A stretch of 64,000 nt of DNA, taken from Sphyrna mokarran. Lineage: Eukaryota. The translations under genes were made by a program, and so were the position numbers. Of the stretch, positions 43,894 through 59,224 are shown one piece after another; position 1 is the first letter of the stretch; each line of letters opens with the position of its first letter. The DNA lies in the NCBI GenBank assembly GCA_024679065.1, contig JAGIQG010000012.1, positions 86,800,001 through 86,864,000 on the forward strand. The letters run 5' to 3'. Under the pieces are notes generated by a model, which did not search any database, was not told where the DNA came from, and was given only the letters and a program-made list of their open reading frames with translations.

Positions 43894-43963
43894 ATGGGTC
43901 GTCTCTTCATTTCCATCGCACATTTCTTCATAATGCTGGCTGCAGCTCAGGGCTTCACGGTTG
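43894..43963 (+). CDS. B7/butyrophilin-like Ig receptor, signal-peptide exon (MGRLFISIAHFFIMLAAAQGFTV)
   Basis: Pyrimidine tract and tag/cag acceptor at 43887-43892, ATG at 43894, hydrophobic leader with AAAQG cleavage-type end, G|gtgagt donor at 43964 (phase 1), in frame with the IgV exon. Confidence 0.85.
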
Positions 43964-44079: not shown

Positions 44080-44620
44080 AACTCTGGTTGGGAGAAAGCT
44101 GATCAATCCAATGTGCCATATGTGGACTCTGCCACCTGCTGGGTAGGTGGTGATTGAAGAGTTGTGTAGATGGGTTGGTAAGAGGTTTGCGTGCTCCCAC
44201 CAATGCCTCAACTTCACCTCTACACAATCCTGAATGAACCTTTGACATTTTGCTTGGATATTTGACAGGACCTCCTGTGAGTGGGTGGGTATGTTTCATC
44301 ACTTCGAGTATGCTTGAGACACCCTGAAAATGTTTGTGCTGTCCTCTTGGCAGTCTCCGGCTGGGACTGAGTTCCGGGTGGAACAGTGGCTTTGTGAACC
44401 TGCTGTTAGGTACACAAGCAGCGTGTCTGACTCAGCGGAGCTGGTTCTAGGTGATTAACACCACAACACTCGGCGTATGGCAAAGGACAATGCTGTTGGA
44501 CCATATTTCTTGCCACTGAATTTGAAAGATGCTGAGAAGGTGATTTGGGTGACACTTATCCAGTGCTCTGGGATGCTTGCCATAGGTTGTCCATACCTCC
44601 AAAACATACAGGAGAGCATG
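44080..44620 (-). mobile_element. RTE-clade LINE 3' remnant in intron 1
   Basis: Minus-strand decayed NQLR..H...RFTKPLF.PEL..RRLPRGQHKHF, resembling RTE C-terminus. Confidence 0.6.
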
Positions 44621-44625
44621 GATCA

Positions 44626-44983
44626 CTGTGTTACTGACTTATCTTTACTCATGTTAATCCAGCTCCCTCACACTGTCACTCAGTAGCCCCTCTTCCCTCA
44701 GCTCCTTGTGTTATTGACTGTATCTGTACTGATGTTGATCCAACTCCTTCACTCTATCAATAACCCCTCTCCTCTAGCCCTCTCTGTTACTGACTGTATC
44801 TGTACTGATGTTAATCCAGCTCCCTCACACTGTCACTCAGTAACCCCTCTCCCCCAGCACCCTGTGTTACTGACTGTATCTGTACTGATGTTAGTCCAGC
44901 TCCCACACACTGTCACTCAGTAACCCCTCTCCCCCAGCACCCTGTGTTACTGACTATATCTCTACTGATGTTAATCCAGCTCC
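44626..44983. repeat. Minisatellite, ~4.5 x 80 bp
   Basis: Units start at 44626, 44706, 44782, 44862 and 44942 (ctgtgttactgactgtatctgtactgatgttaatccagctcc...). Confidence 0.95.
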
Positions 44984-45051
44984 GTCACGTTTGTTAATAC
45001 CTGAAGCCCTGGTTAAAACAGAGCAGTGATCTGATGCCATGTTTGTTACAG

Positions 45052-45393
45052 ATGATTTGAAGGTTAACTGTGAGGTGGACCAAATCACAGTGATGTTTGG
45101 AAGAGATCTTCTTATTGGCTGCCGTTACCATCCTGTAAATGAATCCAAAGCCATTGCTTTCTACTGGATGAAGGTGGAGACTATGGTGATAATCTATAAT
45201 TACAGCAGTAGCAGCCTGGGACGTCTGGACCCCAGCTATCAGCGCAGAGCTAAGGTCGATATCAGTGAGATCCGGAATGGGAATGTGTCCCTGAAATTGA
45301 AGAATGTGACTGTGTCTGATTCAGGACTGTACAGACTCTCTGTCACTAGTCAATCCCAAAGCAATGAGATAACGGTTGCTGTGGATATAAGAG
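45052..45393 (+). CDS. B7/butyrophilin-like Ig receptor, IgV exon (342 nt)
   Basis: ttacag acceptor, G|gtagga donor, phase 1-1; V-set motifs LLIGCRY, FYW, YQRRAKV, GNVSLKLKNVTVSDSGLY as in B7/BTN IgV; four N-glycosylation sequons. Confidence 0.93.
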
Positions 45394-46039
45394 GTAGGAA
45401 GAAGTAAATACTCTCAATCATATTGCATGTATGATTATAGCCCCCTGTCCCCCACAATCCCCCTGTCACGTGCCTCCTATCACAAACCGCAAATGGATAG
45501 GCAGCCAGAAAGCAGCAATGTGTGACCTGCACTGAATCGTTCCTGTACTTAGAATTTATACCGACATCAGTCTTTCTAAAAATCATGATGGGACGTGGGT
45601 GTCGCTGGCTTGTTCATTGCTCATTTTCAGTTATCCTTCTGAAAGTGGTGCTGAGTTGCCTCCTTGAACTGTTGCAGTCCCTGAGGTGTGGGTGCATCCA
45701 CAGTGCTGATACGGAGAGCATTCCAGCATTTTGACCCAGTGACAGTGAAGTAATGCCGATATGTTTTCAAGTCAGTATGATGAGTGGCTTGGAGGGGAAC
45801 TTGCAGGTGGTGGTGTTCCCTTGCCCTTCCAGGTGGTAGTGGTTTATAGTAGCTGCTGCCTATAAAGCAGTGGTGACCCCCTGCAGTATATTTTGTAGAT
45901 GACACACATGGCAGCTACTGTTTGTCGGTGGTGCCCAGTGGGCATTATTAAGGTTATTAAGGCTGGCACCCCCCACCTTGTCCTCAGCTTCACCAGGGAT
46001 CCCTCAGTGCCTCTGCTTCCACCAGCGAGGCCAACATTT

Positions 46040-48291
46040 GTGACCACAATTCGGTTACGTTCACCTTAGTGATGGATAGGGATAGGCATGAAGCTGGGGG
46101 CAGTAGTTATAGCTGGGGCAAGGGTAATTATGAGGCCATAAAGAGAGAATTAGGGTGCCTAGGTTGGACTAGGAAACTACAGGGACTGGGAACATCTGAA
46201 ATGTGGAGCTTATTCAAGGAGCAGCTGCTGCGAGTCCTTGATAAGTATGTCCCTGTCAGGCAAGGAGGAAATGGTCGAGTAAGGGAACCTTGGTGTACGA
46301 AAAAAGTTAATTCGCTGGTTAAAAGGAAAAAGGAGGCTTATGTCAGGATGAGGCTTGAAGGCTCGGTTAGTGCAATGGATAGCTATAGATTAGCCAGGAG
46401 GGAGCTAAAGAGTGAATTGAGGAGAGCTAAGAGGGGACACGAGAAGACTTTGGCTGATAGGATTAAGGAGAATCCTAAAGCTTTCTTTAGATATGTTAAG
46501 AATAGAAGATTGGTTAGGGCAAGATTAGGGCCAGTCATAGACAGCAGTGGGAAGTTGTGCGTGGAGCCTGAAGAGATTGGTGAGGCACTGAATAAATATT
46601 TCTCTTCGGTATTCACGCAGGGTGATGTAAATGTAGTTGTGGAGAACACTGAGGTACAGGGTTGCAAATTGGGAAGTATTGTAGTAGATAGGGAGGATGT
46701 GCTAGATATTCTTGAGGGTTTGAAGTTGGATAAGTCCCCTGGGCCGGACGGGATTTACCCTAGGATTCTCTGGGAGGCAAGAGAGGAGATTGCAGAGCCT
46801 CTGGCTCTGATCTTCAGGTTGTCGTTGGTTACGGGTGTGGTTCCGGAGGACTGGAGGATAGCGAATGTGGTCCCGTTGTTCAAGAAGGGGAAGAGAGATC
46901 TTCCAGGGAATTATAGGCCAGTGAGTCTTACTTCTGTTGTGGGCAAAGTATTGGAGAGAATAATTAGGGATAGGATTTATAGTTATTTAGAGAGAAATGA
47001 ATTGATTGGGGATAGTCAGCATGGTTTTGTGAAGGGTAGGTCGTGCCTTACTAACCTCATTGAGTTTTTTGAAAAAGTGACCAAAGAGGTGGATGGGGGT
47101 AAGTCGGTTGATGTGGTATATATGGACTTTAGTAAGGCGTTCGATAAGGTGGCCCATGGAAGGCTTCTGCAGAAAATGCAGATGTATGGGATAGAGGGTG
47201 ATTTAGCTAATTGGATTAGGAATTGGCTAGCAGATAGAAGACAGAGGGTGGTGGTTGATAGGAGATATTCATCGTGGAGTTCGGTTACAAGTGGTGTACC
47301 TCAGGGATCTGTTTTGGGGCCCCTGCTGTTTGTAATTTTTATAAATGATCTGGATGAGGGTATTGAAGGATGGATTAGTAAATTTGCGGATGACACCAAA
47401 GTCGGAGGAGTGGTAGATAGTGAAGAGGGGTGTTACAGTTTGCAGAGAGACTTGGACAAGTTGCAGAGCTGGGCGAGAGGTGGCAAATGGAGTTTAATGT
47501 GGAAAAGTGTGAGGTAATGCACTTTGGCAGGAATAATAAATGTGTAGAGTATAGGGCTAATGGTAGGATTCTTAATAGTGTTGATGAACAGAGGGATCTT
47601 GGTGTGTATGTGCATAGATCCCTGAAAGTAGGCAGTCAAGTCGATAAGGTTGTTAAGAAGGCATATGGAGTCTTAGCTTTTATTGGTAGGGGGATTGAAT
47701 TTCGGAGCCGCAACGTCATGTTGCAACTGTACAAAACTCTAGTGCGGCCGCACTTGGAGTATTGTGTGCAGTTCTGGTCCCCACATTATAAGAAAGATGT
47801 GGAGGCATTGGAGAGGGTACAGAGGAGGTTTACCAGGATGTTGCCTGGTATGGAGGGCAGGTCTTATGAAGAGAGGCTGAGGGATTTGAGGTTGTTTTCG
47901 TTAGAAAGGAGGCGGCTAAGAGGGGACCTTATTGAAACATATAAGATGATTAGAGATTTAGATAGGGTGGACAGTGATAGCCTTTTTCCTAGGATGGAGA
48001 AAGCTAGCACGAGGGGACACAGCTTTAAATTAAGGGGTGATAGTTATAGGACGGATATCAGAGGTAGGTTCTTTACCCAAAGGGTGGTTCGGGAGTGGAA
48101 TGCCCTGCCTGCGGCGGTTGTAGATGCGCCAAGTTTGGTGGCGTTTAAGAGGTTAGTTGATAAGTATATGGAAGAGAAGGGAATGGTTTCGTTTGGAGGG
48201 GCATTGCTTTTTATATTGGTCGGCGCAACATCGAAGGCCGAAGGGCCTGTTCTGTGCTGTAATGTTCTGTGTTCTATGTTCTATGTTCTGT
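46040..48291 (+). mobile_element. Young 5'-truncated CR1, ORF2 almost intact (one frameshift at ~47475)
   Basis: 482-aa and 287-aa overlapping ORFs with complete RT ([16 protein letters not shown]); (TATGTTC)n tail; flanks aacatttgtga / aacattggtga. Confidence 0.97.
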
Positions 48292-48789
48292 AACATTGGT
48301 GAGGTGCAGGTATTTTCAAGCTGGAGAGAACCTCTCCCAGTGAGGTCAGAAAGGCAAGCAGACCCAGAGGATTGATAGCCAGACTCACTAAACAGATGCA
48401 AATCTTCATTTCAATAAATTTAAATACATTATCCAGCCTCTCGCCGGAGAGGCTGACCTTGCCGGAATTCCAGCTTCCGTAAGATGACGAGAGCCGGGAA
48501 ATCAGGCGATTCCAATTCTCAACTGTTGCTCAATTTTGCCAGCCCATCGATAGGTAACTGTGAGATATAGAAGCAGAATTAGGCTGTTCAGCTCATCGAG
48601 TCTGCTCCACCATTCAATTATGGCTGATTTTTTTCTTATCCCCATTCTCATGCATTTTCCCCATAATCCCTGATTCCTTTATTAATCAGGAACCTATCTA
48701 TCTCTGTCTTAAAGACACTCAATGGCTTTGCCTCTTCCGGTAAAATTCTGCCTTTTGTCTTTGATCCTCTTGGGACATGATGTCTCTCC

Positions 48790-50747: not shown

Positions 50748-51032
50748 CTATCGGTGAGCCACCAATCATCTACTCCTACGTTACTGAAGAGGGTATCCCC
50801 ATGTTGGTCTGTGAATCGTCTGGATGGTTCCCAGAGCCAACTGTTACTTGGGAAAATGGACTTGGCAAAAAGATGGTTAAACATGTGCAAACAGAGACAA
50901 TCAACTACTCAAATGGGACATTCCACACAAAGAGTACAATCAGGATAGACAATGGAATATTCGGCAATTACACCTGCACCGTAACAGACCGACAGTTGAA
51001 CAAATCACTCTCATTTGAATATGTCGTTTTGA
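50748..51032 (+). CDS. B7/butyrophilin-like Ig receptor, IgC exon (285 nt)
   Basis: tcttccctcacag acceptor, A|gtaagt donor, phase 1-1; AIGEPP..LVCESSGWFPEPTVTW...GNYTCTV matches the BTN/B7 C-domain pattern CxSxGWYPEPxVxW...YxC; four sequons. Confidence 0.95.
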
Positions 51033-55965: not shown

Positions 55966-56057
55966 TTGCAGGATCACATTGGAATATCATAATCGGTACG
56001 GCTGGGACCATTATCCTGATTGTATTTTTGATTGTTTCAGTTTACTGGAGTTGCTGA
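55966..56057 (+). CDS. B7/butyrophilin-like Ig receptor, transmembrane exon up to the in-frame TGA (IAGSHWNIIIGTAGTIILIVFLIVSVYWSC*)
   Basis: Strong pyrimidine tract and cacag acceptor; phase-1 continuation gives a ~21-aa hydrophobic helix bounded by W and YW; TGA at 56055-56057; exon continues to donors at 56082 or 56086. Confidence 0.88.
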
Positions 56058-57000: not shown

Positions 57001-57587
57001 AACTAGGGGAGAGCTGTGAAGACACGTCACTCCTGAGTGGCTGGTATTCATTTTAAGATTTTGTTCCCTTGTTTTGGATTCTTTCCCCACAACCCCCATC
57101 AGAGAACATTGTTTCTCTCCATCTGCCTTAACAAATCCCTTAACTCCCTGTTTTCCTTTCCTACCTAGCTTAGTGTCATCAGCAGATTTAACAACCATAC
57201 ATTCAGCCAAGTCATTGATAAATTGTAAACAGTTGAGGTCACAACATTGATACCTGTGGAACTTTATACATCACACCCTGCCAACCCAAAAAAAGACCCA
57301 TTTATCCCTACTCTCTGCTTAGCTAACCAATCCTCTGTCCACACTTAGGTATAACCTACCATCTACACCATGAACTCTTATTTAGCATAGTATCCTTTCA
57401 TGTGGTTTAGTATATGAGATCAAATGTTCTATATCATAATGTTCTGTGAGGGACCTGATGTGATTATATAAACGTAATATAATTGGAAAAATCCATATTC
57501 CTATTCCCTGTATTGTGAAACTATCCTATTCCACATGTTGTATTTGGATAAAACAAAATGAATATTAAACCTTGTTTTCATTGCCAG

Positions 57588-57799
57588 GTCCCCCCTATGT
57601 GTTTATCACTGAAGACTCTGTTGGTTTAAAGGATCTACCTGGTGCGAACGCAAGATCTACTGCAGCGGGTGAAAAGATTTTTTTTGACCCTGTACACAAG
57701 GACTTGTTCTTTTTCCAATTGGAAGACACCAGAACCAACAGAGTTTCAGCGCTTCACCCTCCTGAGTGCACCTCTTCAGAGAAATTAGTGCCTTTTTGA
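57588..57799 (+). other. Probable last exon: open 70-codon cytoplasmic-tail frame, or 3' UTR given the upstream TGA
   Basis: ttttcattgccag acceptor; phase-1 frame GPPYVFITED...EKLVPF* is open; followed by ~2 kb of repeat-poor UTR-like sequence. Confidence 0.55.
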
Positions 57800-59224
57800 A
57801 ACAAAATGATTGATTTTGCACTTTACAGTGTGGTTCCAGCACTGTGTCTGAGTTTCAGCACTAACCCTGCTTCTCACACTGAAGTTCAAACCTAATTCAT
57901 TTACAATCAGGAATTTTTGCTGCTTGAACAATGTGCTTTGTGCTAACGGGTGTATTTCCACTTTATAACTGGCATCTTGGTTACATTACTGTTTTGTTTA
58001 GTTTGTTGAGAATTTGATTTGAATCATCTCAGTTAAAGTGGAGTTTGCACTGTTGTGGACTCAACACAACTTATTCTCTTTTCCCCAGGATGTAGAATAA
58101 GCTAACTAAATTAAATAGCGGAGAAAATTCTCCTCGACTTAGACTAGCCTGGCATGCTCTAGAATAGGGTTCCTACGTTACTCACATGTCCAGTCCTGAG
58201 CATTTCATTTCCTCTGACACAAAAGCCATGGTGCTTAATTCTCTAAATGTTAGATTAACTTAATTTTTCCATACTGTGGGAATCGCTGCTAAATCTTTCT
58301 AACACAGGAGGTAGCTCATACCTCATGCCAAGCCAGTCATGCTAAGTCCCACACTCCTTTATCTCCCTAAAACCATGCAGTTTTCTCTTTCACATTTACC
58401 ATTCCCCAGAAAGATGCAGTGGTCTCGACCTAAGATACTTCCTGTAGCAAACACCAACTCCTGAGGCAAGAAGTATTTTCCTAACATTCTCACTCTTAAT
58501 GACTACTCTAACTGATGGCTATTCAGCCAGAGCCAAGAATGTTTTTACCTTCTTTCTTCAGAACTTTTTTTTAAAACCGCATTACATTTGTTCTGTTAAG
58601 AAGTGGGGGAGATGGAAGATCTTTTTTTCTAGTTATTGGCATTGAGTTAACTTTCGAATTAACTCCACTGCCACTCTGTGAATTGTACAATTGGCTCCAG
58701 TGCCTTGGGAATGACAGGTAAACAGTGATCAGGATTGGGCCCAGGACTCAAGCTGTGGCCAAACTAATCTGTGTACAACAATAACTTAGTAACCACAAAC
58801 AGTGGCCAGACTGAGTATTTCTAACATTTCTTCCTCACATCTTTACCAGCTCCTGGGAATAATGCTGTATTTCAAGGTCTGGCTAGTTTTCTATGTCAGT
58901 ATTGCATACTGTTGGTAAAATTGTTGAGCTGCTTAACAACACATCACCTTCTTTTTCGATAGTGTGTAAGGCGGTCTAGAGCTGCTTAATTTATATTCTC
59001 CTCATCCAATCTCACTATATAGTGCTCATAAGCCTCAACCTTTTCACACACAGCTGGCAACTCAGTCCCAAGCTAGCTGGTAAAGCCTGAAACTAGACAT
59101 TAATACTTCTCTTTGCAATAGGTTTATTTACAAAACGCAGCATTTAGAATGTCTGCTTTCTACCTCACACCCCTCTGTTTTCACTACTCTGTTAACAAAT
59201 GGTCAAATTAACAAATCGTCAAAT

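Follow-up and report, generated by a model that had tools for sequence, protein, structure and literature searches.

Gene B and Its V Exon

The window, by which we mean the whole 64,000-nucleotide stretch of Sphyrna mokarran DNA that was analysed (contig JAGIQG010000012.1, positions 86,800,001 to 86,864,000 of the forward strand), carries a gene, here called gene B, that encodes a type I membrane protein with an IgV domain followed by an IgC domain and one exon per domain, which is the B7 layout. Its leader, C and transmembrane exons were located by way of the Mustelus asterias orthologue, which is 78% identical.

43894..43963, plus strand: exon encoding the gene B leader (signal peptide), ATG to GT donor (87% identity to the leader of the Mustelus asterias orthologue; splice and frame check)
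45052..45393, plus strand: IgV exon with A-strand Cys, B-strand Cys, C-strand Trp and F-site Leu (Pfam, splice sites, contig joins)
45069..45071, plus strand: A-strand Cys at domain position 6, TGT (invariant across the family)
45120..45122, plus strand: canonical B-strand Cys at domain position 23, TGC (codon and alignment)
45165..45167, plus strand: canonical C-strand Trp, TGG (codon and alignment)
45336..45338, plus strand: Leu (CTC) replacing the canonical F-strand Cys (in the family, Leu in 27 of 32 and Val in 5 of 32)
50748..51032, plus strand: IgC exon with the two canonical Cys, a BTN/B7-type C domain (Pfam PF22705, 57.4 bits)
55966..56057, plus strand: transmembrane coding exon ending in TGA, without a cytoplasmic tail (orthologues stop at the same place)
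57585..58500, plus strand: downstream exon, likely 3′ untranslated, running past the examined stretch (the X1, X3 and X4 contigs each carry it together with the V and C exons)

Spliced together, these exons give a frame of 262 codons with canonical splice sites and a single terminal stop. The X1 contig joins the V exon straight to the C exon and continues into the downstream exon, and the same joins occur in X3 and X4, which come from another organism and study (the three contigs, which lack introns, were classed as RNA by guess). Gene B is an intact, spliced leader-V-C-TM gene without a tail. Its protein has Cys at positions 30, 47, 159, 214 and 262, four of which, an even number, lie in the ectodomain; the fifth is the last residue before the stop (window 56052-56054), on the cytoplasmic side of the predicted helix, where most orthologues have Trp. 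By eye, a tandem array of about five copies of a unit of about 75 bases occupies window 44620-44985, just upstream of the V acceptor, and a LINE-type reverse transcriptase remnant (RVT_1) lies at 45961-48293 within the intron between the V and C exons.

The V exon has an AG acceptor and a GT donor, is in phase 1 at both ends and in phase with the neighbouring exons, and scores 48 bits against the Pfam V-set profile PF07686 (cut-off 26). It reads ...KVNCEV...IGCRY...FYWMK...DSGLYRL..., with two Cys in total, so that the F-strand Cys needed for the canonical B–F disulfide is absent from the V-set domain of gene B and Leu stands in its place. The preliminary description had placed the two Cys codons at 45069 and 45120, the Trp at 45165 and the Leu CTC at 45336, and had taken the KVNCEV Cys to be the only one besides that of the B strand; all of this is exact. 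Its view that CTC is no sequencing slip also holds, since the X1 contig has 0 differing letters over 45051-45391, which dismisses an assembly error.

A Cluster of Three Genes

Two close paralogues of gene B, which we call A and C, lie on the same contig. Gene A, encoded on the minus strand, faces B head to head, the two leaders lying about 63 kb apart; it is likewise a tail-less leader-V-C-TM gene. Gene C, downstream of B, is V-C-C-TM with a short basic tail (L032:3955-8236, L033:2697-6183), an unusual arrangement that is kept in sharks and a skate; the X1, X3 and X4 contigs do not span its V or first C exon, and these contigs show presence, not absence. At its N-terminus the Chiloscyllium gene C model bears a PF05049 domain, which probably reflects a fused annotation.

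The IgC domain of gene A (L024:3495-3767; G000:C224:86763495-86763767, minus strand) has an extra pair of Cys six residues apart in the motif NCxGxSxCxK, which occurs in six of the six database gene A proteins checked as well as in the Sphyrna mokarran genome and is absent from genes B and C; the pair could form a hairpin disulfide. In two gene A forms from rays, P0123 and P0125, one of them auto-named MOG-like, the V domain is followed by unrelated sequence and the C domain is missing; they are possibly V-only isoforms or intron read-through.

A TRIM-B30.2 gene separates B from C; on the far side of A lie GBP genes, and past C an NDK-family exon, a set with too few markers to assign the cluster to an MHC-paralogous region. 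The TRIM16/TRIM25-like gene (L030:2639-9442) has a coiled coil and a B30.2 exon that matches TRIM16/TRIM25 far better than BTN, and the GBP exons at L041, L040, L039 and L022 belong to two or more GBP genes that point in opposite directions. GBP and TRIM families are often interferon-induced. The synteny scan covered 141 and 148 selected open frames (of 663 and 386 candidates) over about 400 kb, which provides too few markers for orthology.

Conservation of the Cysteine Pattern

The family alignment comprises 32 V domains from the three paralogues: Sphyrna mokarran supplies three, 17 named sharks and rays supply 28, and there is one further domain. Cys6 and Cys23, 17 residues apart, are present in 32 of 32, and the F-strand Cys in 0 of 32, its site being taken by Leu (27) or Val (5); 28 of the 32 have no Cys beyond these two. 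Cys6 is one of 14 invariant columns out of 111, C23, W38, D89, G91 and Y93 are likewise invariant, and this is in a family whose B and C paralogues average 34% identity. Because all 32 domains share the pattern, it is not a matter of chance, and three further family members found by profile search show it too. The 47 non-family V domains in the same alignment have the F-strand Cys without exception, with Cys at the A position in one (five have a gap there). The refuting condition set at the outset, that orthologues keep YxC and this copy is simply decaying, is contradicted by the Leu or Val at the F site throughout.

With the two diagnostic columns removed, the family forms one clade (support 100/98), and the swap is therefore a single old event rather than repeated co-variation. 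The preliminary description had proposed a search for co-variation of A-strand Cys gain with F-strand Cys loss: the association itself is complete (32 of 32), but one clade amounts to one event. Sharks and rays split about 270–300 million years ago, and judging from alignment and tree the swap is old and conserved across both groups. No holocephalan or bony-fish orthologue was found among the named hits, a set that names 20 of the 148 new representatives and in which the clustering at 50% may conceal further members.

In some lineages the C′-to-G half of the V exon, which includes the F-strand Leu and excludes Cys6 and Cys23, has been homogenised between genes A and B, likely by gene conversion. 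The Pristiophorus A and B genes are 98% identical in this half and 59% in the first half, and the A and B genes of carpet sharks group together in it (96/96). There is no sign of recent A/B homogenisation in Sphyrna mokarran (window 45052-45393 against L002:1498-1842), where DNA identity is 68–76% in the second half and 53–58% in the first part.

The Position of Cys6

We take Cys6 to be the A-strand anchor of the V domain, from the 17-residue spacing of Gln6 and Cys23 in antibodies, and the 6/23 pair to be presumably a non-hydrogen-bonded site, the type that accepts cross-strand disulfides. In alignments to solved domains Cys6 falls where B7-H3, BTNL3, BTNL8 and BTN1A1 have a small, buried residue, Val or Gly, immediately ahead of the A/A′ Pro. 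The AlphaFold model of the window V domain has a pLDDT of 89.5, with two of five models of low confidence; it matches the folds of PD-L1, VSIG4, B7-H3, B7-H6, BTN and B7-H4, with a TM score of 0.83–0.87 against PD-L1 (Z 17.3, rmsd 2.1 over 110 residues). Its strands include residues 2-6, 19-21 and 23-27, with strand E shrunk to 77 and 80-82, and 23-27 would therefore pair mainly with 2-6; since these two strands are of equal length, an antiparallel ladder puts 6 opposite 23, a register deduced from the strand limits of the models. The full-length model of the Mustelus orthologue, with strands 28-30 and 43-49, fits its two Cys, 30 and 47, lying opposite each other.

The preliminary description had held that the A-strand position adjoins the B-strand Cys, and the alignments to solved B7/BTN domains together with the two model strand maps do place it opposite. 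From these we infer that Cys6 faces inward, with Cys23 as its backbone neighbour. According to PMC12051499, the A-strand anchor is the backbone neighbour of the B-strand Cys, is often Gln or Glu in V domains, and with its side chain touches the F-strand Cys at its backbone.

Cysteine Patterns outside the Family

A profile-search survey added 148 further proteins with 489 aligned V domains, a sample skewed to multi-domain proteins because the search ranks by total score; 290 domains in 120 non-family proteins were scorable at the A, B and F positions. Ten proteins, most of them teleost but one a B30.2-bearing BTN-like protein from a sawfish, have Cys at all three, in 16 domains altogether. Cys at A and B without F occurred in eight domains of two proteins (Sparus and Danio), and the Sparus aurata case also has an E-strand Cys, a possible alternative partner. 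One domain had Cys at A and F without B, and 17 domains of seven proteins had a lone canonical Cys, that of the F strand.

Two of the four proteins with an F-Cys-less domain have an A-strand Cys, as against 10 of 113 in which the F-strand Cys is kept (Fisher p = 0.052, with kinship ignored). This weak association suggests support for a route through three-cysteine domains. Co-variation was also put forward at the outset as a test of a relocated bond, and it is weakened by these other fish proteins that have the A-strand Cys and retain that of the F strand.

In the Sphyrna mokarran genome itself, one BTN-like V exon (L005:1495-1833, G000:C1548) encodes Cys at all three of the A, B and F positions; it groups with its sawfish counterpart, the protein XP_051899635.1, which bears the same three. 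A common clade of the family with the three-cysteine shark BTN (L005, P0203) has a p-AU of 0.61 on the V domain alone and 0.12 on V+C, and descent of the family from such a BTN is neither favoured by the best trees nor rejected.

A Probable Relocated Disulfide and Its Alternatives

Since Cys6 maps across from Cys23, the best reading of the pattern is that an intrachain cross-strand disulfide between Cys6 and Cys23 replaces the canonical B–F bond, a reading to which we give a probability of roughly 0.7 on the strength of the alignments and models. The bond would likely have been rewired rather than broken. Cys6 and Cys23 would oxidise in the secretory pathway, stapling the N-terminal strand to strand B, and Leu or Val would fill the core at the vacated F-strand site. 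The GFC sheet, which is the receptor-binding face in B7/BTN proteins, would then lack a covalent pin to the other sheet. In evolutionary terms, Cys6 would have been gained first, giving a three-cysteine domain, and the F-strand Cys would have been lost once, before the split of the paralogues and of the shark and ray lineages. Because genes A and B have no signalling tail, the product may act as a ligand-only co-regulatory surface protein in the manner of B7-H4. Several observations count against this reading: the co-variation is one event in one clade; an A-strand Cys is retained beside B- and F-strand Cys elsewhere, so that conservation alone is no proof of pairing; a lone canonical Cys is tolerated in the 17 domains of the survey; one of the two independent cases of Cys at A and B, that of Sparus aurata, has the E-strand Cys as a possible partner; and the F-strand Leu of A and B lies within the half-domain that has been homogenised in some lineages.

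Several other arrangements can be envisioned. The domain may have no disulfide at all and fold without a bridge in the way of CD2-type V domains, with Cys6 and Cys23 as small buried free thiols. CD2 is cited as a bridge-less V domain in the part of PMC12051499 that we could draw on, and the survey offers the 17 domains in which a lone canonical Cys persists, the 10 proteins with an A-strand Cys beside an intact B–F pair, and a position 6 that is usually small (Gly 137, Val 65 and Ala 16 among 293 scorable domains). Size alone, however, would allow Gly, Val, Ala or Ser, and Cys occupies both sites in every family domain, across paralogues about 34% identical; it is also established knowledge that an adjacent pair of buried Cys in a secreted domain is expected to oxidise. 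We regard this arrangement as unlikely.

Within the A–B reading itself, and counted as part of it, is the narrower and rather improbable case in which the bond is labile, a strained cross-strand disulfide acting as a redox switch that gates receptor binding, as in CD4 D2. Cross-strand disulfides are described as metastable and reducible by thioredoxin, that of CD4 D2 included, in the accessible portion of PMC4354306, but the pair here appears to face the core, which makes access by a reductase doubtful. Broader still, and something of a long shot, is the picture of an undescribed elasmobranch B7 lineage in which the A–B disulfide would be a reducible switch freeing the receptor-binding sheet, the tail-less A and B proteins would work with the tailed V-C-C protein of gene C, and the three-cysteine V domains of fish would be living intermediates of repeated disulfide rewiring.

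Interchain bonds are a fainter prospect, whether as dimers through surface thiols or as A-strand-swapped dimers in which Cys6 of one chain meets Cys23 of the other, in homodimers or in heterodimers among A, B and C. Strand A is the N-terminal edge strand, the tail-less genes A and B sit with a tailed gene C, and heteromers are known for BTN/BTNL proteins (PMC6868513, in the part available). Against this, both positions are inward-facing in the core according to alignments and models, which makes surface dimers unlikely and excludes the simple kind, and all three paralogues have both Cys, so that none needs a partner to satisfy them. Of the two possibilities first raised for this domain, a relocated A–B disulfide thus stands as the best reading, and free thiols available for dimerisation do not. 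Pairing of Cys6 with a Cys of the IgC domain, an inter-domain bond of the Siglec type, was also considered and is unlikely, as most gene B and C members have just the two canonical IgC Cys. That gene B is a decaying copy, or its Leu codon an assembly error, is virtually out of the question: its branch is somewhat long in Sphyrna mokarran and it has a two-residue C′-C″ deletion relative to its orthologues, but both ideas are refuted by the open frame, the canonical splice sites, the identity of the spliced contig over the exon and the Leu or Val found family-wide.

Significance

No constant of the Ig fold is better known than the B–F disulfide, and natural substitutes for it have seldom been documented. 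One maintained across sharks and rays would be a natural test of a V domain stapled via strand A, and the evolutionary route can be probed through the relatives with three cysteines. The analysis also brings together a three-gene B7-like family that auto-annotation has scattered under BTNL2, BTNL8, BTNL10, BTN1A1, VTCN1, CD276 and MOG, and that bears on how co-signalling is reconstructed for the most ancient animals to have antibody and T-cell immunity. By itself the finding reveals neither a receptor nor a new pathway, and any function suggested here is read from architecture. Neither a description of the family nor an A–B disulfide in an IgV domain was found in the open-licence literature, and subscription papers or supplements may describe these genes; the portions available of PMC11926128, PMC12227049, PMC11599192 and PMC3964593 (one of them a supplement file) make no mention of either.

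Relation to Known Families and Disulfides

By alignment and tree the family is an elasmobranch B7-like subfamily of three genes without B30.2. The preliminary description had spoken of an atypical elasmobranch B7/BTN subfamily, of which the B7-like and elasmobranch part is borne out (one clade, no YxC) and the BTN label is weak, there being no B30.2 and the family lying outside the BTN-like clade in trees with weak deep forks. Sequence and fold searches give B7-H3, B7-H4 and PD-L1 as the closest solved relatives (pIgR also scores, through summed weak stretches), and the ESM Atlas returned generic B7/BTN clusters and nothing more specific.

Among the butyrophilins (BTN1A1, BTN2A1, BTN3A, BTNL3/8) the likeness lies in the window IgC domain, which matches PF22705, in a strong match of BTN chains to the family V-C profile (which includes salmonid BTN-like rows), and in the name butyrophilin-like that RefSeq automatically gives to many family orthologues. 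Genes A, B and C nonetheless have neither B30.2 nor a coiled-coil tail, although B30.2 is missing in some true BTN members too, and at position 6 BTNL3, BTNL8 and BTN1A1 have Gly where the family has Cys. In both V+C trees, whose deep forks are weak, the family falls outside the shark BTN-like group of contig C1548. The three-cysteine BTN-like V domains of fish (L005 and the sawfish ‘BTN1A1-like’ XP_051899635.1) have their A-strand Cys at the same position as the family, but unlike the family they keep the F-strand Cys, and they do not group with it in the best trees.

B7-H4 (VTCN1; PDB 4gos) is the best single-stretch PDB sequence match of the window V domain, at 36.4 bits; it shares the V-C-TM layout, and several family orthologues are auto-named VTCN1-like. 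The cytoplasmic tail of B7-H4 is very short or absent. A shark gene on another contig, L074:5949-6278 (G000:C335, minus strand), has a canonical V exon with a C exon downstream and finds in B7-H4 its best single-domain match, at 56.1 bits; from its sequence it is likely the shark VTCN1, and no membrane exon was found in the 20 kb downstream. Gene B was considered as the VTCN1 orthologue and rejected, since L074 beats it on B7-H4 (56.1 against 36.4 bits) and has the canonical Cys. The family is tentatively placed as sister to this B7-H4-like gene, with support of 97/99 under LG+F+G4 and 91 under a mixture model in the V+C tree (where the labels of the other Sphyrna mokarran rows are by resemblance only); the placement is tentative because the branches are long and identities are about 20–30%. 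V identity between L074 and the window domain is 19%, and both branches are long. Both B7-H4 and L074 have the F-strand Cys and lack the A-strand Cys, the opposite of the family.

The Siglec V-sets (sialoadhesin, CD22, MAG) likewise miss the F-strand Cys. Their disulfide pairs strands B and E, so the partner Cys is on strand E, at a position that Val, Leu or Ile occupies in the shark and ray family. One sialoadhesin-like fish protein among those surveyed has Cys on strands B and E, with Phe on F. Strand names for the Siglec disulfide are not given in the parts available of PMC5150538, PMC7765293 and PMC5624926.

The documented precedent for a B–F disulfide replaced by a cross-strand bond is domain D2 of CD4, where the Cys130-Cys159 bond lies within one sheet and links an original Cys to a new one, Leu having taken the emptied site (PMC4354306). 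CD4 D2 is a C-type domain that has lost the B Cys and in which C pairs with F, in primates and muroid rodents, whereas the shark and ray family is a V domain that has lost the F Cys and in which A would pair with B.
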